From Podarcis muralis (Eukaryota), in assembly GCF_964188315.1 (NCBI RefSeq), contig NC_135665.1, positions 30,132,001-30,196,000 on the forward strand: DNA of 64,000 nt. Reading direction: 5' to 3'. Numbering within the stretch: position 1 is the stretch's first letter; each line of letters opens with the position of its first letter. Positions 5,830 through 53,900 of this stretch are shown here, one piece after another. The notes under the pieces are model-generated. The model did not search any database, was not told the origin of the DNA, and saw only the letters and a list, made by a program, of their open reading frames with translations. Position numbers and translations under genes: made by a program.

Positions 5830-6312
5830 AATGGTGTAATAACAGTTTATTTCATCGGCCGTGTGAGGAGGGCACTGCCTGTCTAATATGTCCTAGCAAG
5901 AATTGGAACGAAATATATAATTAGTGCCTTTCCAACCAATCTTTTTTTTGTCAGTGTAGAAAAAATATATGCAGTTACGTGCAGTAACAGTACAAACATA
6001 TAAACATCTAAGTTCTATTAAGCTAAATATAACCAACTTTCCTGAGTAGATATGCATAAGTCTGCATTCTCAGTATCTCAAAGCATACAATTGATAAACA
6101 GAAAAATAAATTGTAATATTAATATACCCAAGGCAGAGTAGGCCACTAAATTTTCTTAAAGTAAAACACACACATTCCATCCAACATTCAGTGTACTCTG
6201 TTTTAAAAGTCAAGGGAGGGGACTTTGGAACTTTTCATTCATTCTGAAACAGAATTCTAAGAATGTTAGGTACTATATAACCCAGAAACCAGAGCATTTT
6301 TTCCACCTTGCT
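5830..6312 (+). repeat. Segmental duplicate of 12985-13473 (region upstream of SPATA9 exon 1)
   Basis: Both copies start AATGGTGTAATAACAGTTTATTTCA and end TTCCACCTTGCT; collinear with scattered substitutions and small indels. Confidence 0.92.
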
Positions 6313-6545
6313 TTTTGGACAGGATCAGTCAAAGGAAGCCATGAGTGTCTTTAGGAAAATAATAGGAATTGTGACATACATACATAGGCAGCTATTTTGC
6401 TGTCAAAAATTCCAAAATAGCCTTGTAATTATCAACTAATAAAAATCTTAGTCATTCTTCAACTTTTTAACATTGCTTTTACTACTTTAACAATTAAAGG
6501 GGAAAGGTAAAGGGACACCTGACCATTAGTTCCAGTGGAGACCGA
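6313..6545. repeat. Left arm of an approximately 230-bp inverted repeat (partner 8915-9148)
   Basis: TTTTGGACAGGATCAGTCAAAGGAAG...AATTAAAGGGGAAAGGTAAAGGGAC is the reverse complement of 8915-9148; few mismatches in the unique part. Confidence 0.9.
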
Positions 6546-6814
6546 CTCTGGGGCTGCAGCACTCATCTCTATAGGCCAAGGGAGGTGGCATACAGCTTCC
6601 GGGTCATGTGGCCAGAGTGACTAAGCCACTTCTTGCGAACCAGGGCACCGCACGGAAATGCCGTTTACCTTCCCGCCGGAGCGGTACCTATTTATCTACT
6701 TGCACGTTGACGTGCTTTCGAACTGCTAGGTTGGCAGGAGCAGCGACCGAGCAACGGGAGCTCACCCCGTTGCGGGGATTTGAACCGCCAACCTTTTGAT
6801 TGGCAAGTCCTAGA
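6497..6814 (+). mobile_element. Sauria-type SINE
   Basis: AAAGGTAAAGGGACACCTGACCATTAG head; GCGGTACCTATTTATCTACTTGCAC...CGAACTGCTAGGTTGGCAGGAG body shared with five other copies in the window. Confidence 0.85.
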
Positions 6815-7340
6815 ATGCCCTAGGTTGGCGGTTCAAATTAATTTAGTTCCTTCTTAAAAAGAATAATGACCCAGCAGTCTTCCTTTTAAAAGTAATGATA
6901 AAGTTTGCTTACATGCAGTTCACTGTATGGTCCTGAAGGCAGGCTTTATCTAGTAGGAATAAGGCGGAAAAGGGAAGATGGCTGCATGACCAGCCCTTTT
7001 GTAGGGTCTGCTAGGGTCACGCCACTCATTTCCTCTGTTCCCCTGGTAAGGGAATTTCAATGGGAGGAGCACGTTTTGGAAGCTAAGCCTGCTGAAATTC
7101 ATCTAGAAAACTGTTAAAGGTACATGAGCCTTGTCCTCTTTCACATCTGACCACATCACTTTCCCTCTTTCCCAGACACATAATGCATACTTAAGGTGAA
7201 ATCTGGAATTTTCATGTGATCCCGAATGCTCTACCGAATGCTCTAGATCTTAATGCATCAAACTGTCCTCCCCCCCCCCCCCGAGTACCGTAATTTGACT
7301 ATTTTTTTTCTCTCCCTCCTTGTATTGACTTATTTTTCAG

Positions 7341-8340
7341 GACGGCAATCGCACTGTTCAGGAGTCTAGGTCTGTTGTGGCGAGAGTGTTTTCTTCCGCT
7401 CATGCAGTAATGATTAGGCATGGGCTAGCTCATCTCTCCCGCTCTTCAAAATCAATTGCTAAATTCGTGCAGCCACACCTTATTCAAAAATTGGCAGAGC
7501 TGCATAGGGTATCACATGGTCTCTTTCCGAAACTGAATGCTCCCAAACAACCTCTTTATAAATTGAAGGTAGGCAATGAGTGTGACTGCTCCATCTCATA
7601 TTTTCTTTTCTTTTTTAAAAAAAATATTTTATTAGGAATTTCAACATAACCATCTCATATTTTCTAAGTGAGTTCTAAGTGAGTGTGTGAGGGATTTTCC
7701 CCAAGTCCCCCCGCCCCAATAATTTGTCTGGGGCAGCAGCGATAGTGTGTGGGCGCACAGAGAGTTAGCAAACCACATCAGGAGCTCTGCATGGAAATAT
7801 TTAGGAACTGTCTAGCATGTGAACATTAGATTGTTATCAATGTTGAGCTTTATGTCCCATTGATTTAAATAAGGAAGATATAAGCAAGTTCTTAACTCTC
7901 CCGTTCAAACCAAAGGAACTTAAAAGTGCTAAACTTTGAAAGGATCATGCATACAAAACTGCAATATGGCAGAAGAATCCCTTGACTATGAATCCCAGCT
8001 TGGTGTAGTGGTTAAGAGCAGTGGTCTTGTAATCTGTGAACTGGATTCGTTTCCCCGCTCCTCCACATGCAGCTGCTGGGTGACCTTGGGCTAGTCATAC
8101 TTCTCTGAAGTCTCTCAGCCTCACTCACCTCACAGAGTGTTTGTTGTGGGGGATGAAGGGAAAGGAGATTTTTAGCCGCTTTGAGACTCCTTAAGGGGAG
8201 TGAAAGGCAGGATATCAAGTCCAAACTCTTCTTCTTCTCTACAGGAAAAATCCATGTCCCTTTATGATGTCCTTTCCTATCCAATGAAGACCGCCCTCAC
8301 TGGTGTAATGTGCATTTCTTATGCAGCACTAATTTATTTG
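7341..8340 (+). pseudogene. SPATA9: Partial SPATA9 duplicate: exon 3 (7341-7568) and exon 4 (8245-8340) only
   Basis: Duplicate of 15910-17856 (16323-16799 is absent from this copy). Both exons are open with intact AG/GT sites. I found no copy of exons 1, 2 or 5 nearby. Confidence 0.8.
8000..8240 (+). mobile_element. tRNA-derived SINE (Squam3-like) with (CTT)n tail
   Basis: TGGTGTAGTGGTTAAGAG A-box-like head, GGTGACCTTGGGCTAGTCA core, tail CTCTTCTTCTTCT. Confidence 0.8.
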
Positions 8341-8524
8341 GTAGGTTAGTAAATACTGTTCTTTCTGATCCTTCTTGTTTCGTGCTTCCCCTTCCCTTCA
8401 GCAAAGAATTGAAGCCATGCATTATTCTTCCATTACTGTGCACCCTTTTAGTGCACATTACCAATGCCCAGCTGTAGTTGGCATGCTAGCTGTGACCATT
8501 CCTCGACCAACATTGCCTACCTAC

Positions 8525-8757
8525 AGTAGAAGAAGAAGAGTTTGGATTTGATATCCCGCCTTTCACTCACTTTAAGGAGTCTCAAAGCGGCTAACATTCT
8601 CCTTTCCCTTCCTCCCCCACAACAAACACTCTGTGAGGTGAGTGGGGCTGAGAGACTTCAAAGAAGTGTGACTGGCCCAAGGTCACCCAGCAGCTGCATG
8701 TGGAGGAGCGGAGACGCGAACCCGGTTCCCCAGATTACGAGACTACCACTCTTAACC
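8525..8757 (-). mobile_element. tRNA-derived SINE (Squam3-like), inverted relative to 8000-8240
   Basis: GAAGAAGAAGAGTTTGGA...CCAAGGTCACCCAGCAGCTGCATGTGGAGGAGCGG...CTCTTAACCA, the reverse complement of the same family. Confidence 0.8.
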
Positions 8758-8914
8758 ATATTTAATTCAAAGTAATCTCTTAGAGTCCTTTGGGCCTTGC
8801 CAATCACCTGTTCATTCCTCAACAACTCATCATTCATCCTCCATCTGAAGGAACCCTGCGGACATCATTTCATTTCCAAAAACACTGCATTATGATGAGA
8901 GCAAGTCTTAGGAG

Positions 8915-9148
8915 TCGGTCACCAATGGACCTAATGGTCAGACGTCCCTTTACCTTTCCCCTTTAATTGTTAAAGTAGTAAAAGCAATATTAAAAAGTTG
9001 AAGAATGACTAAGATTTTTATTAGTTGATAATTACAAGGCTATTTTGGAATTTTTGACAGCAAAATAGCTGTCTATGTATGTATGTCACAATTCCTATTA
9101 TTTTCCTAAAGACACTCATAGCTTCCTTTGACTGATCCTGTCCAAAAG
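8915..9148. repeat. Right arm of the inverted repeat (partner 6313-6545), including a truncated Sauria SINE 5' end
   Basis: Direct reverse-complement match to 6313-6545. Confidence 0.9.
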
Positions 9149-11324
9149 GCATTTAGTTTCACAGTATTTTGTCTTTTAACTCGCTCTTCCAGTATGTATG
9201 CATTACTGTACAGAGCTTTCCTATGGGCTTGGTTTAAAAACAAAGTTCAATCGTACACTAGAAAATGGTTTCAGAACTCTGAACTCCAGAGAACTGTCAT
9301 CAAATTAAGGGCAGTGCAGGAATTTGGTTATTTTCTTTTCCTTCTCAATTGTCCTTGTCAGTCAGCTAGCCACATACTGTATAGGAAGGGCAGATTGCTC
9401 CCAGCAGCTCCACCTACACAGCAGTGAGTGCCAGGCTTATCCCAAACTACTGTGTAAAAGGGGCTTTGTTGCTCACAAACTCTTTCCTGTGCACAGTTTC
9501 TCGCTACTGGAAGAAAAGGGCTCTGTTTGCAGCTAGGAGAAAAGGGCAGATTTCTTTACTTAGCAAAAACCCCAGACCGGATTAAATGTTACAGATATGT
9601 GTGGTTTCTGCTGCTGCTGCTGCTGTTTATCCTTTGTGGTGGCATAACTTTTGAAAGCTTTTACAGCATCTCTGCATCAGTTCCAGCACCTACCAGGGAT
9701 TTGCAGTGTTTGTGCGAGGTTGGCAAACACAGTAGGATGGGTTTTTTAATACTACATCAGCCACATAGAAGGGCGCCACATGGTATTGCTTTGCACTTAG
9801 ATAGGCCATCATCCAGGGGTACCAACTTGAATAAAATATTGCGTAGGCTCAGGTAAGCCCTCCCTGCATAATCGATCACATGGTGTGGTGCATGCATACC
9901 ATTTGAATGGCAATGCCCATCAACATTTGGGTCTGGGGGCGGTCCTCTCAAATATTTTATGGGGAGTGGCGAAGGGACCCCGGCCTCTAGGAGTTGGCTC
10001 CTTTGCCATCATCAGTTGCCAGAGTTTCCAAGGACCAGGAGAAAGCAATCTGAAGACCTGTCAACCACTTGTTGGCAAGGGAGAAAATGCAGTATGTGGC
10101 ACATAAGAAACTACAATTTGTTCCCTGTCTTGCTTTTAGCCTTGCCTTCTGCATTTTCAGCAAAAGTTTCATAAGTATTTCAACAGACCTTTGTGATGCA
10201 TGCATATCATCTAGAAACAAAACTGACAAACTAAGAGTTAAATACTTGCATTCCTCAGAGCATGGCTGTACCTAGCTAATATGCATAACTGAGTAATTGC
10301 ACATCTATCAAGACAAGAATAAGCATGAAAAAATGCCAGTGTGTCAAATCCTTGAGCATCATATCGTGAAAGTGAAGCCATTATCAGAGAAGGATTATGT
10401 GTCTCTGTGTTAAAGATGAGTGATAGACTTCTCTAAGTCATGGTCCTCCATCCTCTGGCAAGCAATTTCACCCTTTTCTGGAGTACATTCCACCAATTTG
10501 GACTGCCCAGGTGTTTATCACTGCATTAGCTTACTGTATCTCTCTCACTCACACACCCACACCACGCCCCTACCCTCTCTCCCTACAGCCACATAGAAGT
10601 ATGCCTAGTATTCTGCCACAACACACACCAATTGCACTCTTCTCCTTGCCTGTCAAGAGAGGCATGGCAAACTACCAAGGAGTTCAGCTTTTCCAGGATA
10701 TACCTTCAGCACAGTCAATTTGGCCCAAAAGCAGCCTGTCACTTCCAGATGATACATGGCTGAGCTGGCCTCTAGCCGAGTTGCATTAGGCAGAAGCTGG
10801 GCTCCCTCCTGCCGCCCTCCTGCCTCACTTACAGGCAGATCTATGCACTGCTAAATAACTGCACAGCTGGAACAGCCTTAGGGAATTCTTGCAGGAACCA
10901 ATATGAACTTTGGCGATCATTTTGAGAAGGATTGGATTAAGCGCGAGAAAAAGAATCAAAGACTCCCAACAATAACAAATCATATTAGCATACAAGCACA
11001 ACATCTCCAATTATATTGATAACATTTGTACATCATAATACTTTTAAAACATCATTTTATATTCTGGAAGCGAGAGACACTTCTGAAGGCTGGATCAATA
11101 TAAATCGTCTAACATTTTGATTACTGGCAAAATTAATCTATTATAAGCACACTATACTATATTCTTCTCAAAGGCACAAATACTTCTCTGATCAACTCCC
11201 TTTTTAGAGAGACTGGAACTCAGTTTCATATCATCACTCAGAAGCTGAATGCTCTTTAGACAGCAAGGGTAACATTCACATTTGCTGTTATTTTAAAGCC
11301 ATTTACTATGAAGCACAGAAGATG

Positions 11325-19714
<8,390 letters not shown>

Positions 19715-19855
19715 ATTCTAAAAGCAAGAGAAAATGCACTATATTACTTAATATGACTGTCAGAAATAACCATGTTGAGGAAAGAAAATCACAACCATTT
19801 ATAGCTGAACAGTAGGCTGGTGCACAAAGAACTTTCACTGCAAACAAACGATATA

Positions 19856-27244: not shown

Positions 27245-28333
27245 TTCATGGATCACTGCCTTGCCGTGGCGAAGGGGCTTGAATAACTCAGAGAAGCTAT
27301 GAACTATGCCGTGCAGGGCACCCAAGATGGACAGGTCGTGATTATGCAAAAGCCTTTGACTGTGTTGACCACAGCAAACTATGGCAAGTTCTTAAAGAAA
27401 TGGGAGTGCCTGATCACCTCATCTGTCTCCTGAGAAATCTCTATGTGGGACAAGAAGCTACAGTTAGAACTGGATATGGAACAACTGATTGGTTCAAAAT
27501 TGGGAAAGGAGTGCGGCAAGGCTGTATATTGTCTCCCTGCTTATTTAACTTATATGCAGAATTCATCATGTGAAAGGCTGGGCTGGATGAATCCGAAGCC
27601 GGAATTAAAATTGCCGGAAGAAATATCAACAACCTCAGATATGCAGATGACACAACATTGATGGCAGAAAGTGAGGAGGAATTAAAGAACCTTTTAATGA
27701 GGGTGAAAGAGGAGAGTGCAAAATATGGTTTGAAGCTCAACATCAAAAAAAACGAAGATCATGGCCACTGGTCCCATCACCTCCTGGCAAATAGGAGGGG
27801 AAGAAATGGAGGCAGTGAGAGATTTTACTTTCTTGGGCTCCATGAGCACTGCAGATGGTGACAGTAGCCACGAAATTAAAAGACGCCTGCTTCTTGGGAG
27901 AAAAGCAATGACAAACCTAGACAGCATCTTATAAAGCAGAGACATCACCTTGCCAACAAAGGTCCATATAGTTAAAGCTATGGTTTTCCCAGTAGTGATG
28001 TATGGAAGTGAGAGCTGGACCATAAAGAAGGCTGATCGCCGAAGAATTGATGCTTTTGAATTATGGTGCTGGAGGAGACTCTTGAGTCCCATTCTTAAGG
28101 AGATCAGCCCTGAGTGCTCACTGGAAAGACAGAGCCTGAAGCTGAGGCTCCAATACTTTGGCCACCTCATGAGAAGAGAAGACTCCCTGGAAAAGACCCT
28201 GATCTTGGGAAAGATTGAGGACACAAAGAGAAGGGGATGACGGAGGACGAGATGGTTGGACAATGTTCTCGAAGCTATGAACATGAGTTTGACCAAACTG
28301 CAGGAGGCAGTGGAAGACAGGAGTGCCTGGCAC
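27245..28333 (+). mobile_element. Bov-B (RTE clade) LINE remnant, internally deleted and frameshifted
   Basis: Bov-B-like 5' text GGATCACTGCCTTGCCGTGGCGAAGGGGCTTG joined at about 27338 to RT sequence (DYAKAFDCVDH...GVRQGCILSP..FNLY...LRYADDTTL...YLG) and to the Bov-B 3' end (CTGAAGCTGAGGCTCCAATACTTTGGCCACCTCATGAGAAG). Contains stops and frameshifts. Confidence 0.88.
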
Positions 28334-29014
28334 TGTGGTATGGAAATCAGGAGCAATAGTTTCTAGCTGTTTAATCTGCATCGGTGAGTTGCAGTTGTCA
28401 GCTATTTAACTGCCCACTATAGCTATGCCTATAACATCAGCTTGATGTGCAGACATCAGCTGATAAGTGTTGATGCTGTGAAAAGCTTAACAATTTCTGT
28501 ACATCAAACTGCTGCAGGGGGCACAAGACAATTTTAGCTTTGATAAGGTTATGAAGAATATGCAGTCTGTTCTTGGTGGCGTCCGTGGCAAGACTTCTGG
28601 GCTTTTCTAATACTGCAGGATTTGTTTGTGCTTTCCTTGCAACAGGTTTTCTAGCACATTCAAGCTAGATATAAACCCCTTTGGGAAATCAACAGTGAAT
28701 TGATGCGGCGGCTACACAGGGGTGCGGGGAACCGATCTTTTTCGTTTAGTGAGAATTGATCGCCGGTATTTAGCTGCGAAAGGCGTGTGCTTTCGGGAGG
28801 CGTCTGTGGAAAATGTGACAGTGAAGAGACCCTGACTCCGCTCAAGACGACTGCAACCGTTGAATTGGAGGGGAGGGCGAAATGGGCTGAGGAGTGGGCA
28901 GAGCTCACAGGCGCGATGGCTGCAGCCTGGTGCGCCCACCCACGGTGAGTGACAGGTGACAGGCAGAGCCCCTATATATGCTGCCGAGGGCACCCGTGCA
29001 CAATCCTCGCTGCC

Positions 29015-30358
29015 ATGGAAGACACGTTCAACCCGGACAGCCTTGCCGTCGGACCCAACTTATCCGGCATCGCGATTCCCGGGTGGAACTTGAACCTTTC
29101 GTCCCCCGGGGCTACTCTGGGGCAGCCTAGCGCGCGGACCCTATCGGCGGGCGCGATCCTGCTGCTGGCGCTGGTGGGCAACGGCTTGCTCTTGCACCGG
29201 CTGCGCTGCGGAGGGTGCTGCTGCGGGGCCCGCTTCGGACGGCGGCGCAAGATGGATTTCTTGCTGGCGCACTTGGCCATCGCCGACCTCTACGGGTGCG
29301 GGCTGGTGCTGCTCTCCCAGCTTCCGCCGGCCGTCGTGGAGCCGGGGCAAGCAGCGTGGCCTGCAGGGGACGCCACTTGCCGCCTGCTGTGGTTCCTGCA
29401 AGGCTCCGGGCTGCTGGCGCCCTCGCACATGCTCGTCCTGATCGCGATCGAGCGACACCACATGGTGAGGGGCCCCGCGCACCCGCCGCTCTCTTTCCTG
29501 CCCGCCCGGGGCGCTTTGGCTGCGCTGGGCTGGCTGCTGGCGCTGCTGCTCGCCTTGCCGCAAGCCTTCGTCTATCGGCTGGCGCCTCCCGAGGCCGGGG
29601 GCCGTTGCCTCAGCATCTTCGCGCAGCGGCCCCGCTGGCACGGCCAGACCTACGCCGTGTACTGGGCCGTCGCGGGCTTCGTGGCGCCCGCCTGCCTGCT
29701 GGGCGGGACCTGCGGCCGCATCCTCAGCGCGCTCGGCGGCGCACCCGGCGCCAAGGACGACTACGACGACGCCGAGCCGTCGCGGGGGGCAGCGGGCAGC
29801 GGCCGCCACTACGGCGCGGAGCTTCCCGGCGCCTCCGCCGCTCCTCGCCCGCCTCCGCCGCTCTTGCTGCGGCTCCTGCCCGTCGCCAAGTGCGCGCTGC
29901 CCTCGCCGCCTGCGCCGCGGAGCCTGCCCCGCGCGCGGGCCCGGGCGGTGCAGCTGACGCTGGCGCTGGCCACGCTGTTCGCGCTCTGCGGCTTCCCGCG
30001 CTTTCTCCTGGAGCTCGCCTTGGCCTTCGCCTCCTCCGAGGGCGCCGACGAAGCGCGGGCGGCCCTGGGGAGCATCATGGCGGCCACCAACAGCGCCCTC
30101 AACCCCTACGTGTGCCTCTTGTTCCACAGCCACGGCCCGTGGGCGCGGCGCCTCCAGCGCAGGCTGTGCCGCTGCCCCGACGGGCAGCCCCGACGGCGGG
30201 CTCGCCACCGGCATCGCCCGCCGCCGCCGCAAGCGGCTGTTGAGCGCCCTGGGCGCTGGCTGTGCCCTTGCCAGACCAAGCCGCCCACCGTCTCCACGGT
30301 CGTCCACCTCGAGGAGGGTGAGAAGCCGCTCTCCGCTGCTTGCGAAAGCGGCTTCTAA
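29015..30358 (+). CDS. GPR150: Orphan class A GPCR GPR150, intronless, 447 aa
   Basis: Kozak GCCATGG at 29015. RRKMDFLL..LAIADLY, LIAIERH, ALAALGWLLALLLALP, PRWH.Q.YA, NSALNP and C-terminal CESGF all match human GPR150 as recalled. The CDS lies in a CpG island; TATA-like CTATATAT at about 28972. Confidence 0.93.
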   Translation: MEDTFNPDSLAVGPNLSGIAIPGWNLNLSSPGATLGQPSARTLSAGAILLLALVGNGLLLHRLRCGGCCCGARFGRRRKMDFLLAHLAIADLYGCGLVLLSQLPPAVVEPGQAAWPAGDATCRLLWFLQGSGLLAPSHMLVLIAIERHHMVRGPAHPPLSFLPARGALAALGWLLALLLALPQAFVYRLAPPEAGGRCLSIFAQRPRWHGQTYAVYWAVAGFVAPACLLGGTCGRILSALGGAPGAKDDYDDAEPSRGAAGSGRHYGAELPGASAAPRPPPPLLLRLLPVAKCALPSPPAPRSLPRARARAVQLTLALATLFALCGFPRFLLELALAFASSEGADEARAALGSIMAATNSALNPYVCLLFHSHGPWARRLQRRLCRCPDGQPRRRARHRHRPPPPQAAVERPGRWLCPCQTKPPTVSTVVHLEEGEKPLSAACESGF

Positions 30359-35970: not shown

Positions 35971-38900
35971 CTGCAACAAAGAACGATTAAGGCAAATTAA
36001 TGAGCCTGAACTTGAAAAAAGCAGTAGCGCAGCACTGGAGCATTTGTTTGGTGTGCAGAAGGTCTCCCAATTTCAATCCCCAGTATTCATTTTATTATTA
36101 TTATTTTGCTTTTATATCTCAGCTTTCTTCTAAGGAGCTCAAGGTGGTGTACATGGCTCTCCCATCTCCATATTATCCTCACAACAAAGCTGTGAAGTAG
36201 GTGAGGTTAAGAGATGGTGCCTGGCCCAAGGTCACCCAGCAAGATTCCTACCTGAGAAGGGATTTGAACCTTGGTTTCCCACATCTTAGTCCAACACTCT
36301 AACAGCTACATCACCCTAGTGTAGGCTGGGCTAAGAAAGCCCCCTGCCAGCCTGTACAGAGCAGGAGAAGGGAAACTTTCATCTGAAGGACCATACTGTG
36401 TTAGATACTGGAGGTGGTACATAGCTCCAACTTCCTTGAAATCCCCCTTTCAAGCCACCTGAGTTGGCAGCCATCACTACACCTCACAGTAACAAATTCC
36501 ATTAACTATGCGCTGCGTGGAAAAATACTCCTTTCCCTCCCCTCGAAACTCTCACCATTCAACTTTATTGGATGGTCCCAAATTCTAGTTTTATGAGAGG
36601 AAGAAAAATGTCTTCCACTTTCTCAACACCATGCATGCTTTTATATACCTCTCTCGTGTGCCACTTTACTCACCTTTAACAAACAAACCCCGAAAACCCT
36701 CAAATGTCATTACTTCTCATAGGTGAGTTGCTCCCTTGATGATTTTGGTAATGTACCCAGGCCTAGACTACAGCATGCCACCTTTTTGGACCTTAACCTC
36801 TTTGGTGCCTAGTCATCTGACCACATTGTCCAATTTGAGACGATGAAACCGTAGTGCAGTGGTCAAATTCAAACCCAGGTTTATGGGTTTAAGCAGACTG
36901 GGCTATGCACAGTTGAGACATTAAAGAGACAACTGTCCTACCTGTCTCAGACTTTGGCCAGTGATTCTAGTGTCTTCAGACTGCACTTTTGCTGTTTCCA
37001 ACAGTGCAGTGCATTGACTGCAGAACTGTGTTTTGATTTAACTGACACATTTTGTTTGTACAAACTTGCTTTGTTGCAAAGGAGGGTGCTGATCCTTATG
37101 AAGAATGGGATGCTAATTACTATCACTACTACTTTACTACACTGCTTCTCTGCTCTTCTGGTGAACCACACAAGACATGATGCAGCAACAATTAATCATA
37201 TGTCTGGTAGTTTGTGTTGCTTCAAGACAGGAGCTACATAGTTTGATTTGTGCCTCCCTATGAGATACTCATGTGTGGCGCTGTGGGTTAAACCACAGAG
37301 CCTAGGACTTGCTGATCAGAAGGTCGGCGGTTCAAATCCCCGCGATGGGGTGAGCTCCCATTGCTCGGTCCCTGCTCCTGCCAACCTAGCAGTGCAAGTA
37401 GATAAATAGGTACCGCTCCGGTGGGAAGGGAAACGGCGTTTCTGTGCGCTGCTCTGGTTCGCCAGAAGCAGCTTAGTCATGCTGGCCCCATGACCCGGAA
37501 GCTGTACGCCGGCTCCCTCGGCCAATAAAGCGAGATAAGCGCCGCAACCCCAGAGTCGGCCACTACTGGACCTAATGGTCAGGGGTCCCTTTACCTTTAC
37601 CTTATGATACTCGTGTGGACCAGAACAGAGGATCAGACTGTACATTAATCAAGTAGCAAACGTACCAAACAGCTGAGGAGATACTGAACGACCATCTGAG
37701 TATGCTATGTATTTCCATTTGTCAGTTCTCAGCATGTAGGTCGAAGAATTCACATTGCAGCCATGGAATTCACTCAGAATCCAAGTAGGATGTTGCTTTC
37801 TAGTTGGGACTTTATCTTCTGCCTGTTTCAATACCAGGGGCATCAGTGAATATCCACTGAGATTTTTTGGTATGGGTATTCCAGCCACGTCTGAAATTGA
37901 AATTGTGACTTAAGTCAATTTGTTTTTAAAATTTGGTATTTACATTATTTAAAAAGAATTAAACATAATTAAAAGAAAAGGCAGAAATATATAAAACCAA
38001 CAAGGAAATAAATTATACACTATGTCAACCATTGCAACTTGTCCTTTGACCTTTATAGTGATATTTCTGATCCTCTTATCTTTGCATTTATATTAAGTCC
38101 AAGATGCCTCTTACATTTTCTTACTGCAGAATTAATACTAGCTACCTAGGGAAATTATTTCCACAAAACTTCAGTTCTGTTCTAACCATTAGCAGTTTAT
38201 TTGTTACTTTTAAGCAACTCATATGCGATGCAAAAGAGACAGATAGCAAGATTTTTAAGTCACTGAAATTAAACCTAACATCTTTCTGAACTAAGGGTGG
38301 CATCTAATTGCAGTGTCCTGTTTGCACAAGTAAGACTTACCCTTCCTTCTCCCTGAAGCCCCCCCATCTGCCTAATTTAAACAACCTTTAAGATGGAAGT
38401 ACAACACCATAGGTTGCATCCAGTGCTGTCACTGCACAAATGGAACAGACATCCACTTGTGCAATTGAACTTCCTGTCCCTTTCCATCCCTGCATATCTT
38501 CAAAAACATGCTTCAGAGGGCTGAGGAACCCTCTGGAGTGATTTTTTTTTGGGGGGGGGGTCCGTACAAAGAGAAATACAGGATGGCAAAATCTGCTGCA
38601 GGAATAAAAGTCTGTTTGTGCCATGTTAGATACACCACCACACCTTTAAGGGAAATTGTTAAGAAGTGACACATACATGTACGGAAACAAACTGTAAAAT
38701 CAAATGGCAAGGCACACAGACAGAGACTATATTCCTATCTACTACAGATAAGGTCAGAGCTTACTTCATCAGTCGGAGTGTCTGAGAAAATAACATTAAT
38801 CATTTGTTTGTTACTCACCTAAATAAATTAATCATTTTTGATTTTTTTTTTGTATTTTTTTAATATGCTGAATACAGGAAGGAAGAACCAGGAGAGAACA

Positions 38901-41900
38901 TATGGAGAATGAGAGCACAGGAAGGACGGTGATTTAAAAATACAAACTTCAAGAAAAGAGAGGGGGGAATTAAGACAGTTGGAACAAGAAGGTAGGGGCT
39001 GAGATTTGTTTAAGAGACTGTGTGACTCATTCATTAGTAATGTTAAACTAAAGTCTCTAGTTAGAATATAGGGTTTGAACTGAAAGTACTAACTATTTTC
39101 CAGCAGTTTAGAAATCCCCAACTTCTTGGCGACCTTTCAGTGATTCCTTCATAAGAGCTCACCTATTCAGAAGGCTTTGCCCTCACCTCTGAATTGACCC
39201 AATTTTCCTTCCGTAATACAGTACTGTCATGTCAAATACAGTTAACTATGAAGCATGGCCATCTTATCATGTTCACAATGTGATTCCCAATTGGTTAGGA
39301 TTGCCCATGTGACCGGTCTAGGAAGCATCATCCTCACACTCATTAATTTTATGCTGCTGCACTTCCATAAAACTGTACCATGTGCCTTCAGACAATGCCA
39401 GGGCAAGCAAATTAGCTTTGTTTCTCTCAGTAAAATCAAATTGGCTATGCAATATTACAAGATCCTATTTACTAAATGACCCCTAGACAACTGAATACAT
39501 TTTTGTTCCGATGAACTTTCCCAGTTGGATAAATTGTTCTTTACTGTGGGTGTCTACTTTGCTAGGGTTTCAGTACTGTCTTTATGTATTTGCTGTTTTG
39601 GTGTTTTTAAGTGTTGTTAATACTCTTATGTGTAAATGGTTGTTCAGAAGGCAATGAATAAATCAAAGATGATGACGATAATAGGTGGGATAACTCATGT
39701 CACTGATCCAGGTAGCAATGATCCCAGTTTCACATTGATTTCTTGTCCTCAGCGATGTCACATAGCTAAATCTAACAAGTTTCTTAGTGCCTTGACAACA
39801 TTCAGGTCACTATGTGGCCTGTGATTAGTCTAGGATTGCCTGTGTGATTAAGTCTAGGAAGAAGAAGCAATACTCAGAAATTTGGTGGGAAGGAAATCAA
39901 GCTGCAGCAGACAGAACAACCAACAGCAACAAACATGACTGTAAAAAGGCAAATATTCCCACAATTAAAAGGGTTTCTTTTCTCCAGGAAATATTTCTCA
40001 TCCTTCCCGCAAATGGGACACTTTTGACGCAGAAACGGAAATAAGGCAGAATACATTATTTTCCACGTTCCAGGTGTTTATAATTTCAGAAGGATTTTGA
40101 GAGTCTCATTATTTCATTCAGGATTTTTTTAAAAAAAAAAAAAATCATTTCCCCCATTATTAAAACATTCAGTAATATCTCATTTTGGAAATGACTGGAG
40201 CTCTGCGGAAACCTTCATGCCCACCTGCCTAAATATATATCCCGTTACATGTCCTTTGAGCACACTATTTTTTTTAAAGTGTGATTTTTATATCTGTGCA
40301 GAGCAGTGTAAGTATCATTCTGGCGATGCGTGCATGAAACAAGAGTGGCCTCGGTGCACATGTCGACAAAAATACACTATTCATATAAACTAACGTTAAA
40401 TCAAAGGAGGTGAAACTGACTGGGGCATCTCCAAATTTTGGCTTTATTGATCAGTGTCGGATCCTTTAAATGTCCCTTCTTTGCAAGCTGAGCAGTAAAC
40501 CACAACATGGTGTAGGCATGTTGGGGAAGTTATCTGACAGTAGTGACACCATGGTTGCTAGTCAGCCATGCTTGAAAACCAGGGGTGGCTAACCTGTGCT
40601 CTTCCAGACGTTCTTGGACTCCAACTCCCACAGGCCTCAACCAGCATGACCAAAGGTAAGGGATGATGGGAGCTGTAGTCCAGCAACTTCTAGACAGTCC
40701 CAGGTGAGCCGCTCGTGCTTTTAAGCCATCTCCTGCAATCATATGTTAGCAAAGGGAATGGTTTTAAATATTTTTTTTATCCCTGCTGGTCATATGAAGT
40801 GAGCTTGCTATTCCAACAGAAATATTGCTTACCGAGCATGGTAGGGTAGATATCCACAAGGGACACCACATTGGGGACGAATTGCAGCTTAATATTCGGT
40901 CCCATTATAAGGAGAGGAACATGGGAGCTTGCTTCGTACATGCTCATTTTGTAAAACTGCCTGTGTTCCATGGCAAGTTCTCCATGATCTGCAGTGAATA
41001 CGACAAGAGTCCTTCTGAGTAGTCCTGTGTCATTTAGAGCAGAAATTATCTCACCTGCAACAAAATATAAGGGAGGGTTAATGCACAAACATCAAAATAT
41101 TCATTAAACATTGACATGCATAAAAATAGTTTTTAGATGTCACAAGGAGGTAGCTCTTCTGCCAGTGCAATGAAAGCACTAGATCACATTGCCTGTGTTC
41201 TCATTTATACAGAAGTCGTTGCTGTTTCAAGGATTCCAAAGAAAAGTCCTCTGGGAGGATGGAGAGAAGCTGATTATGGGAGATCATGAGGGGCAGTTTA
41301 TTTTCTCCTTGAGAACTCTGAATAAGTTCCTTCCACAGCTAAATATCAGCGTGCACAACTGTGGCTTCCATACTTCCAGAAATCTCCATCTGAAATGCTG
41401 CATTTTGCTAATCTGTTGCTAAACACCCACAGTTATCCACTTTTAGAAGCTCACATTTAAGTCTACCATACAAATCTCAAAGTATGCTTTAATAGTCTGA
41501 AACTTGCAAGAGTTTTTAAAACTGCACTGAATCCCATTTAAAGTGGTGCACATGCTCAGATGCAAGATTTAGGCCACAACCCTATACATACTTACATGGG
41601 CATAGCTGGGGGGGCAGGGAGGGGCAGCTACCCCCCCCCATAATAAATAGAAATCAATCAAATACATAGCAAACTGAGGTTCTGCCCCCCTCCCAACAAA
41701 AGGCCTGCCCCTCTTAACAAAAGGTCTGTCCCCACAACAAAAAATCCTGGCTACCCCATGCATACTTATTTGGATGTAAGCTCCACTGAACACAATGGGA
41801 CTTGCTTATGAGTGTACCTAGGATTTGAGTTGTCAATATCTGGGTTCGTTGTAGTTCTCTTGACTTCACCCAAAGTGTTTATTATAATGTATGAAACTGT

Positions 41901-44900: not shown

Positions 44901-47900
44901 TTCTTCCGGTTCCACTATCCCCTCACTAACTATACTAACGCTTACACAAATCGTCTACAAGAAAGACTTTTCCTAAAAAATTGAACGTGTGGTCTTCCCT
45001 TGCTCACCGCAGTGCCTGCGTCTAGGAACAAAGCCACACGTCTTAAGGATGGCTCCAGCTGATACCTTACAGACCATCTGCTTAGCAACATAGCGTACTG
45101 TGAGACCATCATGTTGATGCACTGCTTTGAATTGATTCAGCAAATGAGAGAGCTTGATTCAGCGCTAAGCTCCATTCCAACTTAGACAGGTCATTGCTGC
45201 AACCCCAAGAACTACACAATTAATTCTGTGTGCCCAGCAGGACTTCCAATGGTGCATACACATAAACACGACGGCAATCCAATATTCAAAGCAAAAGTCA
45301 AAGTGTGACATATTGCATAGAAACCCATGGCTCACAGAAAAAAACTCCTTTGAACTCAAATCACTGTAGTATATTAGCTTGATAGCAATCCTCTGGAAGT
45401 GAATATCCAATTATTATTTTTGTAGAACATGTATTTGAGTTCATGTTCATATTTAGGCTTCAATGTTAGTTGAAGCCGCTGATTCAACTACAGTGGTACC
45501 TCGGTTGTCAAACGTAATCTGTTCCGGAAGACCGTTCGACTTCTGAAATGTTCGACAACCGAGGCGCAATGGGCGGTCGGCCAATTCCATGGAGAAAATT
45601 GAGAAATGCACCTCGGAAGCTATTCGACTTCTGAGGCACGTTTGAAAATGGAAGAATTCACTTTCAGGTTTTCGGCATTCAAAAACCAAAATGTTCGGCT
45701 TCCGAGACGCTTGAAAACCGAGGTACCACTGTACTGCTTCTGGGCAAATGCGTTCAAGTTAATTGTCATCAATGGAGACAATGTCACAGCTAGAGAAATG
45801 GACAGTGCTTATTGGTTGCTGTGAGGCAACAGCACAGGAGGTCTACCCTATTGCACTGCTTGGAAGCATGTGATTGGCTACTATGAGAATCAGGATGCTG
45901 TAAAAACGATGCATGTTTGGTTTGATCCAGCCGGGTTCTTGACTTCTTAGATGTTCACAGCTGTCCCCTCAGAAAACTCTGGAGCGAACAAAAGACTATT
46001 TTTGTCTGGCTCCAGTTTTTCCATGGAAAACAATATAACCAAACATTCACCTGAAGAAATCCCGTCAATTAGTGCCCGAGATACTACAGCCAGCTAGGTT
46101 TTGTATGAAAATGTAGTAAATAGATGCTTCAAGGAAATTCAGAATCCACACATACAACAGAAGATAAATATGATTGCAATAATGGCTTTCTTTTTCAGCT
46201 CACAGGAATGGGGAAGCCACAGTACACAATATGTACATTGTATAATCCACATTATGGTATACTCCAGAACATACCACCCATACTTCTCATTAGGCATTCC
46301 AACACACAATTATGGGGTGGATCCTAGCAGAAGGCACATAACCAGGGCTTTTTTTCAGCCAGAACTCACTGGAACGGAGTTCGCACACCTCTCAGATGGG
46401 CACCATTGCCATTATAAGAGAACCAGGGAGGCATTCATGGTGAGTTCTGCCACCTCTTTTTCTAGAAAAATAACACTGCACATAACTTTCCTCCCATTGG
46501 GCCTCTCCTGTGCCAACAGTCAAAAGCCATCTCTGCGGCTCATGCTGGCCATGAGGTTGTCCCTGCCACACAGAGGGATGAAAGGTGACCTGAGAAGAGT
46601 GAAGAAATTGGTTGCACGCGGTTCCCAAGCTAAGAACAACTTCATGTTCTCCCTAGTATAAGGATATTCAGGGACTAGAGCTATGACAAAAAATCTAGCA
46701 GAGAACCTAGAAAACGGAATACAAGGTGTACACTTTCTGAGGTTATTGTACTTCACTAGCTCAATACAGGTCCCTTGGAGTGGATGACAACAGGAAAAAA
46801 GGAGTAATCAAGAAATCATTCAAACAGCTGAAATTCTAAGACATTGCAATGATGGAGACTAAAATTGAGCACTATTCTCATTATATATAAAAAAAGTAAA
46901 CCATGCGCTGAAGATGCTTTTGTGAAGAAATGGTTGTTTCCTTTAAAATATTCTGCTGAATTACAGGGTTACACTGCCATTTAAGCAGTGGGAGCCATGG
47001 CAACCAGTCTGGAGAGTTTTGTGTGACCATTGTAAAAACAGAACCTGGAAACAACTCAGATGGAATACAAATAAACAGGAAGAGCTGACTCCCCCTCACA
47101 GAAAGAAACCATGTATGCCATCTTGAACTCATTGGAGGAAATGTGGGATAGAAATGTAATGCACAAATAAAATAAAGAGCATCTTTACATCACAAGCTTA
47201 AACTGGTTTTATTAGTCATTCTCAGGGCTTTGTTTTTCAGTCAGAACTCGTTGGGACTCACTTCTCAGGTGGGCGCCATTGCCATTCTAAGAGAATGGTG
47301 AGTTCCGGCACCATTTTTTTCTAGAAAAATAGCATGGGTCTTTCCATTTATCCAGGGAACCACGAGCATAGCGGTTTTTAACAGGAAGGACGTAGGACTA
47401 GATATTCTGAAAAGCGAATTCTCAGCACTATCACCCTACTATAATTCCTGGGGGGCCAAGGAGATTACAGTTTAGTATAAAAACATAAGTACATATCTGC
47501 TGTACTACTTACTTATCAAACCTTTATTAGGCATTATACAAATAAAACGATAAAAGAGAAAATAACATATAAAAGCCTTGAAATATATACAGAAAGGCAG
47601 CAGTTGGCTACATACATATATATATATATATATACATATAAAATCAGTGGTTTTCCTTGTTAACCTGCTCTTTGGAGAACTGCTACCAAAAACTCGGCTA
47701 CCCCCGCCGTTACCCTTTGGTCAACGTCGGATAGGCAGAATCCCACACATTCACCTTGCTGGGGTTCCAGACCACCCAAAAGAGGGGACAGCACGCGTTG
47801 ACGGAGCGTACTGTACAATGGGCAATGAAAGAGAATATGCTCTACCGTGTCCGGGACATTCATAGAACATCTGCAGAATCTCTTGTTTCTAGGAATGTTT

Positions 47901-50900
47901 TGATATCTTCCCCTGACAAATGCTGAGGGAAAAACATTCAAACGGGCCAGCATAAAAGCCCTACGTTGGGCTGGAATTATTAATTTAGTGACGTAATTGG
48001 CTCTGCTATCTAAGATATTTAAATCATAGAATATGGGGGAGCAAATTTTGTTTACAGCTGCCATAATATTTTGTCTCTCGACATCCTTTAGTCTAGTTAG
48101 GATATTATGGAAAATGTATTGCTCATTAGAATTGTACAGGGGCTCCAGCTCGATGCCTAAAGATTCAATCTTTTTTTCGAGGTACTGATACCATCTTGAT
48201 TTATAGGAGTCCTTGAGCAAATCAGCGAGCAGACTTGATGGGGGGCAGCGAAAATGGCAGCGTAACCAGTACTTTATTGAGGTGGACCAGGCCCAATATT
48301 CCATTGTGTGTATGCCTATTTCTGCACACATTGTTTCATATTTGATCACAGCTGGGAGTCCAAGAGTACGTCTCAGAAAGCTGGAGTGAATCTTTTTTAG
48401 ATCACTGTTATATGCTTGGACCCATAGCGGGATTCCATAGAATATCTGGGATTGCACTTTTGTTTGAAATATCTGATTGGCCGCAGGAATAAATTGATTG
48501 CCTTTCTGGTAATAAAAACGGGCAACTGCTGATGAGGTGCACTTTGCCTGTTTTATGGCATTTGTGCGATGATTTGCCCACCCTAAATTGCTCTGGAATA
48601 AGATTCCCAGGTACCTATAGATTTTCACTTGTTGGATTTCTTGCCCTCTTATTTTCCATTTCTCTAATTTCCAACCATTCGAGAAGACCAAAATTTTTGT
48701 CTTCTCATAATTTATAGAGAGTTTGTTACATTCACAGTAAAGGATCAGAGAAGATATAAGACGTTTCAGACCCAAGCTCGTTAATGATAGTAGGACAGCA
48801 TCGTCTGCGTATAATAAGAGAGGAACTGGTTTCTGATTAAGTTTAGGGGCATGTGATTCTATTTTTTGAAGGTGATCTGGCAAGTCTGATAAAAATAAAT
48901 TAAATAGAAAGGGGGCAAGAATACACCCTTGTTTTACCCCTTTCGAGTTTAAAATGTCTGATGAAAGGTGACCTTTGGTGTTAAGTTTGACTTGACAGGT
49001 ATTGGAAGAGTATAGATTTTGTATTAGAATCAATAAGCGCTGATCAATTTTTAATTCCGCGAGTTTCCTCCACAGCTTTGGGCGGTCAATTGAGTCGAAT
49101 GCACCACGAAAATCTACAAAAGCAGCATATATCTTAGATTGCCTTTGGGATCTGTATTTTTCAACCAAATGCATAAGTATAAGGCAGTGGTCTAATGTAG
49201 AGCAACCTTTGGAGAAACCTATTTGTTCTTTCCCTGGTAAATTTAGATTTTTCATCCAGGTAAGGAGTTTAGATAAAAGGTGCTTAGCGTAGATTTTCCC
49301 TATCACTGATAATAGGCTTATCGGTCTATAATTCCTTGGTTCTTTTGGGTCGCCATTTTTAAAGATTGGGATAATTATTGATCTTAACCATATCTCAGGT
49401 ATGATCCCATATTTATCTATGAGAGTAAACAATTGAGCTAAGGGTTCTGCCCACCAATCTATATAGGTCTTGAATAATTCTATTGGTAGACCGTCTGGCC
49501 CAGGAGATTTCCCCGATTTGAAATTTTTAACTATCTCTCTAATTTCCTCTTCTTCTACCCTTGGCCACTCCTGGAGTTTATTGATTTTATTTTTAGTGGT
49601 CTCATTTCCTTTAGGTTCACTGTGTAGATTGTTAAATACAGATGTAAAGTATTGGGACCATTTGGATTCTGCAATTGGTGGTAGAGTTAATTGATTTTCG
49701 GCTTTCAGTCCTCCGTACACTAGGTTCCAGAACGCTTTGTTGTTTTTACTCTGAATTGAGTCGAATAATTGTAGCCATTTTTGGGTTGCATATTTCTGTT
49801 TCTTTTCGGCCAGAATGTAATGATATTTTCTTTTTTCATCAAGATAAGAGGGCTCTAGTTTAGTGCGATTATTTTTAAATATTTGGCGCAGTTTTCTTTT
49901 TAGCTGGAAACATTCATCATCAAACCAAGGGCTAGCGCTATGTTTAAGTACCCAAACTTTAGGTGGAGTACTAAGCTCTACGAACATTTGGAAGATTTCA
50001 TTATAAATTTTCGGAATATCACTGTAGGAATTCGTGGTCTTTAAGTTGGATAATATTTGTTTTCTCAGGTTGGCTGTAAGTTTTTGCCCCACTGCTGCAC
50101 TCATTTCCTGGGACCATTTTAATTGGGTCATTTGTTTGTATTGAGAAGGTTCTATGATATTGTACTTGGTTATTTTGGTTTCGTCCTTTAAGTTAATAGA
50201 CAACGATAATGGCTGATGGTCGCTTTCAGTACGCGTTCCAATTTTGAGGTCCATGATCGAATTTATAATATTATAAGGGACAAGAATATAGTCGATGACA
50301 CTGCAACCTCGGGGGGAGAAGTATGTAAACTCCCCGCTTCTATCGCCTTTTGTTGAACCGTTCACAATCTGCAAATTAAAGTTGTTACATAATTCAAGTA
50401 GGCGTAGGCCTTCGTTGTTTACAACCCTATCTTTGGAGAATCGTCCTATTTTCAGGGCATGTGCGATATCATTATCAATATTCCAATTTAGTTTGCTACA
50501 TAGTTGTTCATTGTTGGTTCCCACTCTGGCATTAAAATCACCTGCTATTATCAGTGAGGCATTTGGGTATTTATCGGTCAAATTTTCTATATAAAAGGTT
50601 AGTTGTGACCAATTTTCACTGCTGCTGTTGTTTTTGGTTGGGGGGATATAGACATTTACAAGTAGCAAAGTATCGTCTTTTTGGGTTAAAAGTAGAGCTT
50701 GTGCAAGTGGTAAGCATTTTTCTAGCTGCTTGATTTCAAACCCTAAGTTGTCTTTGATCATACAACAGAACCCTGCTTTCGGCCGGCCCTTCGTGTTTGT
50801 TTTCAATGCGGGTTTCGTATAGGAGATGAATCCATTGATTTTAATATCTCTAGTTGACCATGTTTCTTGTAGAAGTATTAATTCAAAATCTTTAAAGAAG

Positions 50901-53900
50901 TTCATTAGGTCTGGGTCTCCGTCTTTGTTTCCCCACCCTGCAATATTCCAGGACAGCAAGCGTAGGATCCGTTTTTGAGTTGGTGGCTGGTTGACAGCAT
51001 TTAGTCATTTTAGTTCTGTTGTTGAGTCCAGCGAGGGATTTTGTCTTGTGCAGATACAGCCATTTGTCGCTGCTTTCGGTGGGGGACATAATGGTGGATC
51101 TTTTAGATTCTTTTTTAAAGTGCGGGAAATTAAAATTTCCTCCCTTTCTTGATTTTCTTCCTTAACTGTTCCTTGTTCCTGAGAAATTTCTGTAGTTGGT
51201 GGACTGTTATGGACAGTAGGACTGTTTTCAGTCTCTACTTCCATTTCTTTGGCCTCATTTGGTGTTGAGCTCAGTGTGTCAGGACTGTTGGAGGTCATCT
51301 TTTGTTCGGCAATGTTAGAGTCCTTTGTAGTACTTAAATAAGGGGTACCTATTTCGTTTGGAGCTAGTATTTGATATCTCAGCCAGGAATTTGTGGTCTC
51401 ATTACTGGAGTTTTTCCTTGCCATTTCATATTCTAAAGGAGGCTGGATTTGAAGCTCTGCATCTATACATTTGAAAGTTCCATTAGTAGCTCTCTTTTTG
51501 ACTATGCATTTTGGGGAGAGGGCTGGTAAGTGTAAAGTTTGATTGTGTATTGTTTCTACTGCATTTTGTTGACCTTGTTGGTGAATTTCGGTCAATCTGG
51601 CCTGTAGTTTCGTCAATTTACTGAGTATGTTTATTTGTTCTTTATCTGGTAGCTTGGTAAAGTTACTCAGCAGGTCTTCTTCTTCTGGGACTGTCCAGTC
51701 TATTGTGTCAAGGGCGAGGCTGTTATTTAATGCTACAGTCGCATGGTTTGGGAGCTTGGATTTTTCTTGCGTGATTTCCCGGGTAGCTGGCTGCGGTTTC
51801 TCCCATCTACTGGGTTCTTCCACGGGAGTAGGGCAGATGTCGGCTTCTGGTGGAATGGCCTTGTTCATCTTGTTCTGTCTTTTAGATGCAATCAATGGTC
51901 TGGGTGATATATCTTCAAAGTGTCGACGCGGAATAATTCCTTTCTGGGCTAAATGAGCCTTTTCCCTTAAGATTTTGGTTGGAATTCTATGACTGCCAAA
52001 TCTTAGTAGTACTTTTTTGGAGTATCCATCGTTAGTGAGCCTCTTGACTGCTTTTAAGTCGATGCTTCCACCCTCAAGGCCTAGGAGCAGATTTAGATGA
52101 TGTCTGGCCCAGAAGGATGATTCCCAGTAAGGTAGGGGCCCTCTATATGGAAAAATGTGGAGAACGATCTCACATGGCCTCAGTATCAGGTTGACTGAGT
52201 GAGGGGGGCTTCCTCTGGTTTTTGGCTGGTTTAGAGGTATAAATTTGTATTTGTTCTGTTTATCTCCGGGGCTTGTTAAGGATGGCAAAAAGGGAGTAAG
52301 TTGCCTCCTTTCATCTGGGTTATCCAGCTTCTTGGAGATGTTTTGTAATTGTTCAAAGATTTTTTGAACTGTTTGAGCATTCAATAGGCAGCATTCCTCC
52401 AGCAGCTCCACCTTTCTATCAATTAGTACTTGTGCCTCGATTATGGGAGTAGTAGCCTTTTCCTCATTTATTCCTAGGGATATCTCTTCAACTGTCTTTC
52501 CATGTAAAGAGTTGAGGGAGGTTTTGGGAGGAGATATGTGCTGTTTTTGAGGTAGCAGGTAATTATCTAGATTACTCTGTTTGAAACCAGAGGGCTCTGC
52601 GTCAGTTTCTGTATCAGGACACCTGAGTCTTTTGGCTCTTCTCATTGCTAGATTCTTCTTAAATCAATGAGATCAGACTTCTAAATAGAGTGATAAAGTG
52701 CTAAAGTTCTCAGGTCGCAATCTCATTCACTTCTCATTCAGTCCTGGCTGGGCTGCTGCGAGGAGTTCAAAACTGGGTCCAATTAGAGCCCTCCTTTGAA
52801 GTGTCCCCCCCCCCCCTTCTTCTCAGTTTGTTAAAACAACTGAGATGTTCGGGGGTCCAAAAGTTAGAGGTGGTGGGAGAAATTTGTGGTTTTATGAATT
52901 TGTAGTTTTTTTTTTTTTAGGGTTAAAAGCCCATTAGAAGTCCTTAAAGATCCTTGGAATAAGTTTGTCACAAGGAGTTAACAAGAAACTGGGAGGGAGT
53001 GCCTTAATGCCCGAGAGGGAATATCTGCTGTACTTGGTCACAGACAATCTGGCAACATAATAAAATACAGTCGTACCTTGGTTCTCAAACTTAATCCATT
53101 CTGGGAGTCCGTTTGACTCCTGAAATGGTTCAAAACTAAGGCACGGCTTCCAATTGGCTGCAGGAGCTTCCTGCACTCAACTGGAAGCTGAGTTGGATGT
53201 TCGGCTTCCAAAAAAGTTTGCAAACCAGAACACTCACTTCTGGGTTTGCGACGTTCGGGAGCCAAGTTGTTCGACAACTAAGGCGTTTGACTACCAGGGT
53301 ACCACTCTACTTTGGTTAATCTTTCATTTCAGATTTGAGTCACACAGCATTAGGAACATAGGAAGCTGCCCTATACTGAGTCAAGCCATTGGTCGATCTT
53401 GATTAGTATTGTCTACACTGATTGGCAGAGGTTCTCTGGGGTTTCAGGCAGGAACCTCTCCCAGTCCTACCAGGAGGTGCTGGGGACTTGAGACCCTCTG
53501 CCACTGAGCTACGGTCCTTCTGTGGGTTGAGGAATAAAATGCTCTAGAAATACAATTCATTTTTAAAAACCTATATCAAGCTATACACTAATATTTGCAT
53601 ACCCTCTGTAGCCAATAAGGAGACGTCCGAAATGTAGATGCCCCATAATTTTCTCCGGAGGAAGGTGAAGGATACGGATGAGGCAAATTTAGCCCCAAGT
53701 AAAGAACGAAGGGTTGTGTCAAGTTGGTGGCTTTGTTTCTTAGCCAAGCTGCAGCATCGTCGGTGGCCTTCCAATCCTTTTGCATGACTCTCACATAGGA
53801 CTTGTTACCTACAAGTTCTGCCACAGGCCTGCCTTCTTGCTGAAGCAAAAAATCAACGCTTCTGGTCCAAGCCTCCACACGGTTACTGAAAATCAGAACA

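Follow-up and report, generated by a model that had tools for sequence, protein, structure and literature searches.

The subject of this report is the translation of the enzyme of an intact long interspersed element (LINE) of the wall lizard Podarcis muralis. The analysed window, a stretch of 64,000 nucleotides (contig NC_135665.1, positions 30,132,001 to 30,196,000), carries on its minus strand a full-length LINE whose two open reading frames (ORFs) lie contiguously in the same frame, with a single UGA followed by CUA between them. As the best of the explanations considered, we give about even chances to the reading that the ORF2 enzyme is made by basal programmed readthrough of this UGA-CUA, yielding an abundant ORF1 protein and a rare 1661-residue fusion of ORF1, endonuclease and reverse transcriptase (RT). 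In this proposal a single RNA of the young, intact squamate element would be translated. The majority of ribosomes would terminate at the ORF1 UGA and release the 546-residue RNA-binding ORF1 protein, and a minor share (of the order of 1–2%, by analogy) would insert an amino acid at UGA-CUA and continue via an 11-residue linker into the fusion. The high ORF1:ORF2 ratio would be set by readthrough, and the enzyme would be tied to the ORF1 multimer as Gag-Pol is to Gag.

The minus strand reads, from 51016 to 50945, GAA CTA AAA TGA CTA AAT GCT GTC AAC ... CGG ATC CTA CGC TTG CTG TCC TGG AAT. The features of the junction are the following.

51002..51007, minus strand: ORF1 stop TGA (51007-51005) followed by CTA (51004-51002), that is UGA-CUA-A, the candidate readthrough site.
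51006..51008, minus strand: AUG overlapping the stop (AUGA), in the -1 frame, open for 38 codons and closing at 50892.
50998..51000, minus strand: AUG right behind the stop, in the +1 frame, open for 31 codons and closing at 50905.
50972..51004, minus strand: stop-free linker of 11 codons between the stop and the endonuclease fold, its last bases being a five-A run (50976-50972); predicted local distance difference test score (pLDDT) of the model below 50.
50945..50971, minus strand: endonuclease strand beta-1 with motif I (RILRLLSWN), a strand in the model and aligned with motif I of relatives.
50903..50905, minus strand: the earliest AUG in the frame of ORF2 (MNFF), at its residue 34 and downstream of motif I.
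51008..51064, minus strand: conserved 19-residue ORF1 tail (N-G-C/S-I/V...D...L...) reaching the stop, recognized from relatives and a leave-one-out profile.

An earlier inspection of this DNA by a model that saw only its letters and ORFs (the sequence-only reading) had proposed this geometry, and most of it was confirmed by re-reading. ORF1 and ORF2, joined with X at the TGA, form 1661 residues with one internal stop. SWN occupies residues 18-20 of the ORF2 frame, ahead of the first in-frame AUG at 50905, so that a start there would delete motif I, as had been stated. The AUGs of the junction had been placed in one frame, and this part did not stand: the one at 51008 closes at 50892 and the one at 51000 at 50905. 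Neither is in the ORF2 frame, in agreement with the earlier claim, and simple stop-start coupling indeed fails for ORF2 because the overlapping AUG closes after 38 codons.

In the structural model, beta-1 (its strand E41-49) covers ORF2-frame residues 12-20 with a pLDDT of about 90; disorder (below 50) is predicted for the tail of ORF1 and for the linker of 11 residues. Initiation at the first AUG would remove beta-1 with the motif I Asn, and therefore ORF2 is predicted to need the segment ahead of that AUG. Three near-cognate codons are found inside beta-1, 13-17 codons past the stop (ATC 50968, TTG 50959 and CTG 50956), all with pyrimidines at -3 and +4 and hence in a weak context. A start at the TTG (residue 16) would clip four residues (RILR) from beta-1, at positions where relatives are hydrophobic.

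The starts of ORF2 in other copies were compared at the protein level on cluster representatives, from which the ends of ORF1 relatives were also read (the P0013 cluster holds 14 sequences and the P0002 cluster 13). P0002, with 61 differences in 1099 residues from the window ORF2, and P0061 are two different close copies. The call of each begins at the Leu encoded by TTG in the window, where this codon is the first ATG/GTG/TTG past the stop, and both are listed as starting MLSWN. A nearby AUG brought into frame in these copies, for which a single-base change in the five-A run would suffice, or an ATG at 50968, would be expected to give a longer call, which disfavours a hidden upstream AUG. The call of P0003 (43% identical; the nearest other family in a quick tree) begins no earlier than motif II, past SWN, and the more distant P0005, P0006, P0009 and P0012 have a start ahead of motif I. 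The gene-caller output for P0002, P0061 and P0003 agrees with an ORF2 that has no AUG in this group. The MLSWN starts bear as well on a quite improbable explanation, namely that the active master carries ATG at 50959, one base away from the TTG that would be a private change here, and uses ordinary reinitiation 15 codons past the stop. Gene callers write M for TTG starts; moreover, such a start would cost beta-1 its RILR, though relatives keep hydrophobic residues there, and it leaves the open in-frame linker and the CTA unexplained.

The position of the ORF1 stop is shared by another copy and by distant families. Between P0013 and the ORF1 of the window there are 26 differences in 546 residues (95% identical), and both stop at the same codon. 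Among all cluster representatives, 47 ORF1 relatives with a maximum length of 681 residues were found, and the endonuclease motif is absent from all 47 and from P0013. Conversely, none of the 11 endonuclease matches obtained in the 612-1950 residue range is fused to ORF1, and the search for a junction-spanning protein below 913 residues returned only two matches, each confined to one side of the stop. A sequence N-G-C/S-I/V near the carboxyl terminus is found in 14 of 49 ORF1 proteins (window counted). The tail counted from its Asn is exactly 19 residues long in 10 of these 14, the others having 17, 18, 29 and 51. The remaining 35 of the 49 do not carry the motif; many of them have the look of spliced gene models or fragments, and a different end is seen in some. 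The motif was regained by a leave-one-out profile in 13 of the 14 proteins (P0049 was missed), with the best match of the window at -19 at a modest score (5.3 vs 3.7 for the top protein without the motif). When the window and P0013 are taken as one family and P0049 is left out, the distance is exactly 19 in 8 of 12 families.

This fixed end is kept in spite of low identity (19-40%, median 26%, among nine compared ORF1 proteins) and of a stretch between the RRM and the motif that varies from 154 to 285 residues (eight proteins measured), so the position of the stop is under long-term constraint. Such a constraint fits readthrough, reinitiation or a carboxyl-terminal binding motif alike and does not choose between them. 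By the protein comparisons, the stop is a family trait at least in its position. The sequence-only reading had named a private stop in a single-ORF element as the finding that would speak against it. Nonsense mutations are common in LINE copies, but this explanation is largely refuted, and is the least probable of those considered: P0013 shares the stop codon, the distance of 19 residues from the motif to the end holds in 8 of 12 distant families, and no fused relative was found.

Initiation at an out-of-frame AUG by the stop, followed by a change of frame at the five-A run (50976-50972), would also lead into ORF2. The change could be slippage, or the active master could differ by one base, in which case this copy would be a frameshift mutant. 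Up to the run neither AUG frame contains a stop, each is one base off the ORF2 frame, and an AUGA overlap is a common coupling signal of the SART1 type (PMC5972666). This explanation predicts calls from an upstream AUG in P0002 and P0061, whereas the called start of each is the Leu past the run. Homopolymers are mutable, which favours it, whereas the five-A run is not a canonical slippery site (X-XXY-YYZ). In addition, AUGA cannot arise where the last ORF1 codon has a third-position pyrimidine, as is the case for Asp and Asn, the final residue of 8 among the 12 tails of 17-19 residues. With no 3' structure predicted either (see below), we hold it to be improbable.

Two candidate roles for the tail were tried and rejected. 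The conserved Asn-Gly was considered as the site of an overlapping ORF2 start: AAT GGC holds an AUG in good context (AUG within AAT-GG, 51063), and its +1 frame closes after 17 codons, just ahead of the ORF1 stop (51010-51063, minus strand). A tail resembling a termination upstream ribosome-binding site (TURBS) or a 2A peptide, compared with consensus motifs, was unsupported by the sequence. At the other end of ORF1, a motif Q-x-x-L/I-x-x-F/Y-F/L is common to the group (residues 23-30, 52550-52580, minus strand) with a nearly invariant Q23; it resembles the PCNA-binding PIP box. P0021, P0045 and P0052, which do not have the 19-residue tail, carry a second PIP-like motif at their carboxyl terminus.

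UGACUA is the hexamer of type II readthrough (UGA followed by CUA or CGG), for which it requires a 3' structure only conditionally (PMC13517186), and a readthrough level of 1.5% was obtained in HEK-293T cells with UGA-CUA alone (PMC4132726). The junction of this copy has UGA followed by CUA and an enzyme in frame behind the stop without a start of its own, the latter supported at the protein level by P0002, P0061 and P0003. TGACTA occurs at one of the 94 TGA triplets of the sense strand of the element, which is the ORF1 stop, and CTA accounts for 31 of 1115 ORF2 codons (2.8%). The joint probability of an in-frame arrangement, 12 open codons and TGA-CTA is about 0.0007, or 0.009 when only UGA-C is required; these values derive from base composition with frame and context assumed irrelevant, and they overstate the surprise, being post hoc for an element chosen for this look. 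ORF2 protein is scarce in LINEs, and basal readthrough may suffice.

Several observations weigh against readthrough. No 3' structure is predicted (z = +0.83 for the 153 nt examined, and z from -0.87 to +2.28 for nine windows around the stop, with pairings within 200 nt); there is no stable fold 5' of the stop either, and Rfam gave one chance match (E 0.23). The downstream stem-loop for which the sequence-only reading had suggested a search is thus not predicted, and any readthrough would be basal. The leaky context that it had invoked holds as far as UGA-CUA is that of alphaviruses, but the vertebrate CUAG motif is not matched, since the context is CUAA with A as the seventh base. Readthrough of OPRL1 depends on all of CUAG, the three bases after C being also critical (PMC4132726). 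In a machine-learning study that PMC13517186 cites, no effect of the nascent peptide on readthrough was seen beyond the P-site residue, and a conserved tail alone is consequently no evidence for readthrough. The modelled ORF1 tail is not packed on the endonuclease (pLDDT below 50, in a region of the model without alignment depth). The gag-UGA-pol junction of the Candida element Tca2 looked like readthrough, but none was directed by its flanking sequences in S. cerevisiae (PMC2194720). The CTA and the shared frame are known from the window copy, the relatives being compared as proteins; scans for DNA of relatives present as host contamination in bacterial and archaeal contigs gave 46 and 74 pattern matches, with none confirmed in either scan. 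In P0002 and P0061 the initial M could stand for a genuine ATG, and P0003 could be a damaged copy. Lastly, the start of mammalian L1 ORF2 is thought to be independent of its AUG (PMC5009743).

This last point leads to the main rival, AUG-independent termination-reinitiation as proposed for mammalian L1, which the sequence-only reading had already set as its principal alternative and which we keep as such, as a possible but less probable explanation. Ribosomes would restart in the linker or at AUC 50968, UUG 50959 or CUG 50956 and make a free ORF2 protein; UGA-CUA would be there by chance and the tail could hold the post-termination ribosome. Termination-reinitiation is used by L1 and by SART1 of the silkworm (PMC5972666). 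It would account for the missing AUG and the fixed stop without a new mechanism, three near-cognate codons are at hand within 17 codons of the stop, and APE domains often begin at the position of AUC 50968. Its weaknesses are the pyrimidines flanking all three codons, the clipping of beta-1 by a UUG or CUG start, and the shared frame, open linker and CTA, which it does not predict (the joint chance given above, with its post hoc limit). Readthrough of the UGA-CUA into a fusion, as claimed by the sequence-only reading, is partly supported. Two outcomes that this reading had named as refuting, a private stop and an in-frame start ahead of motif I, were looked for in part at the protein level, and neither turned up in other copies of the family; the CUAA context and the missing stimulatory structure are held against it.

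Production of ORF2 from a separate RNA, through splicing to the in-frame CAG of the linker (50989-50987) or from an internal promoter, is very improbable. The CAG is acceptor-like, but it has no polypyrimidine tract ahead of it, and a single GT[AG]AG donor (52173) is found across the 5' untranslated region (UTR) and ORF1. A minor junction promoter exists in Tca2 (PMC2194720); a shorter RNA would still have no AUG ahead of motif I.

A broader form of the readthrough proposal seems doubtful to us: that readthrough is clade-wide in these reptile LINEs, their endonuclease-RT being made only as a readthrough fusion, the first among non-LTR elements (those without long terminal repeats, LTRs), and that the 19-residue tail slows termination from within the exit tunnel, in place of an RNA stimulator. 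The machine-learning result cited above counts against the part on the tail. In the open-access literature we found neither programmed readthrough in a non-LTR retrotransposon nor a treatment of the junction of this family; subscription papers, Repbase Reports and bioRxiv supplements are outside this scope, and a mention is conceivable in the notes of Repbase on squamate LINEs. The available portions of PMC8226300, PMC11203168 and PMC5753468 do not treat the junction. Viruses and LTR elements are well known to use readthrough, and what is new, if true, is its use in a non-LTR element.

The element as a whole is organized as follows.

47507..53020, minus strand: full-length APE-type non-LTR retrotransposon (LINE) of 5,514 bp with both ORFs intact, bracketed by target-site duplication (TSD) copies and with Pfam matches RVT_1 and Exo_endo_phos.
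53021..53034, no strand: TSD of 14 bp on the 5' side, identical to 47493-47506.
47493..47506, no strand: TSD of 14 bp on the 3' side, identical to 53021-53034.
52646..53020, minus strand: 5' UTR of 375 nt with three short upstream ORFs (3, 4 and 17 codons).
51008..52645, minus strand: ORF1 of 546 residues (ATG 52645), with a basic amino-terminal stretch, a long helix/coiled coil, an RRM, a helical pair and a disordered carboxyl-terminal part.
47660..51004, minus strand: ORF2 frame of 1114 codons, with an APE endonuclease, RT and carboxyl-terminal CCHC-type knuckle, identified by Pfam and fold match.
47507..47659, minus strand: 3' UTR of 153 nt with AATAAA at 47528-47523 and a short TAAG-repeat tail.

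No Pfam family matched ORF1. Its domains are delimited by an AlphaFold model built from 40 sequences (coiled coil at residues 68-119, RRM at about 151-249, helical pair at 319-367). The RRM aligns with the central domain of human L1 ORF1p (2w7a; Z 7.5, root-mean-square deviation 3.0, 81 aligned residues), tied with generic RRMs; RRM fold matches lie at Z 7.5-7.8 and the RRM is a common fold. In ORF2 the endonuclease covers about residues 12-270, the RT residues 553-801 (Pfam) and the CCHC-type knuckle, labelled from sequence reading, residues 1044-1061. The Pfam matches Exo_endo_phos, Exo_endo_phos_2 and RVT_1 give the order endonuclease then RT that defines an APE-type LINE. The endonuclease model matches the L1 endonuclease 1vyb (E 1e-13, fold search), and a sequence search of the PDB with the endonuclease gave weak matches only (best E 0.066). 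In the protein atlas ORF1 led to unnamed clusters only, below 0.9, and the endonuclease to generic endonuclease/exonuclease/phosphatase (EEP) clusters. The sole named relative is a Zootoca vivipara gene model (89% identical). No LTR was found among the 20 largest of the 48 repeat families of the window, nor by self-BLAST, and the window holds no second copy of the LINE.

The perfect TSD and the two intact ORFs show that the junction was recently copied from RNA. The insertion is recent, and these same traits are no proof that ORF2 was provided by the source RNA itself. A quick ORF2 tree groups the element with P0002 and P0003 (SH-aLRT 100) on long branches and without labelled references. The RTEX clade, with which it would share the APE-RT-CCHC organization of ORF2 and the AATAAA with microsatellite tail, is a tentative lead for its classification. 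No esterase appears among the ORF1 fold-search matches, which span residues 151-249 only and are all RRM-like. The supplements of PMC6050309 (12 of 13 files) contain neither RTEX nor the junction string.

The LINE probably lies in an intron of a sulfatase gene on the same strand, of which exons are found at 37652-41091 (minus strand). The window also carries a single-exon GC-rich rhodopsin-family G-protein-coupled receptor (Pfam 7tm_1; 28949-30358, plus strand), which resembles GPR150, also in its neighbours, and exons of a soluble Rieske ferredoxin (11328-19717, minus strand) and of SPATA9 (7329-16301, plus strand). The sulfatase, ferredoxin and SPATA9 exons match the ARSK-GPR150-RFESD-SPATA9 block. 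A local duplication of 94-95% identity (5830-8758 and 12985-17855) contains the same SPATA9 exon twice (7329-7646 and 15954-16301). The last exon of a choline/carnitine acyltransferase family gene is found at 2282-2749 (plus strand), a gene that is not known from the mammalian gene order here. A frameshifted RT fragment of another LINE family lies at 27283-27858 (plus strand) and is 36% identical to the RT of the element.

How ORF2 is synthesized from a bicistronic LINE RNA is a long-standing question, and the solutions given in the reviews consulted are of reinitiation types. Readthrough, if true, would give an intact vertebrate LINE a route like that of Gag-Pol, in which the ORF1:ORF2 ratio is built in and the enzyme is covalently joined to the RNA-packaging protein. 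The fixed-length ORF1 tail offers, under any mechanism, a second and independent handle on events at the stop.

The closest parallels to the junction are the alphaviruses (Sindbis, chikungunya) and the triatovirus PSIV, in which UGA is likewise followed by CUA with the polymerase in frame behind the stop (PMC13517186). The LINE differs from them as a cellular retrotransposon without predicted 3' structure, for which readthrough is a proposal. Compared with the vertebrate UGA-CUAG genes (OPRL1, OPRK1, AQP4, MAPK10, MDH1), it has A as the seventh base, and its extension is 1114 codons long with two enzymes rather than a short tail. Moloney murine leukaemia virus (MoMLV) and Tca2 share with it a structural and an enzyme ORF in one frame with one stop between them, but they are a retrovirus and an LTR element, and MoMLV uses UAG-G with a pseudoknot (PMC13517186). 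Among non-LTR elements, L1 and SART1 have, like this LINE, a bicistronic RNA coding for an APE endonuclease and RT, and the coiled coil and RRM of its ORF1 are as in L1 ORF1p. In L1 a spacer of 63 nt is followed by the AUG of ORF2 (PMC5972666), whereas no in-frame AUG precedes motif I here, and in SART1 an overlapping stop-start opens ORF2 (PMC5972666), which the overlapping AUG of this LINE does not. An esterase is present in the RTEX ORF1s that PMC3905857 names, whereas a coiled coil and an RRM make up the fold of this ORF1.

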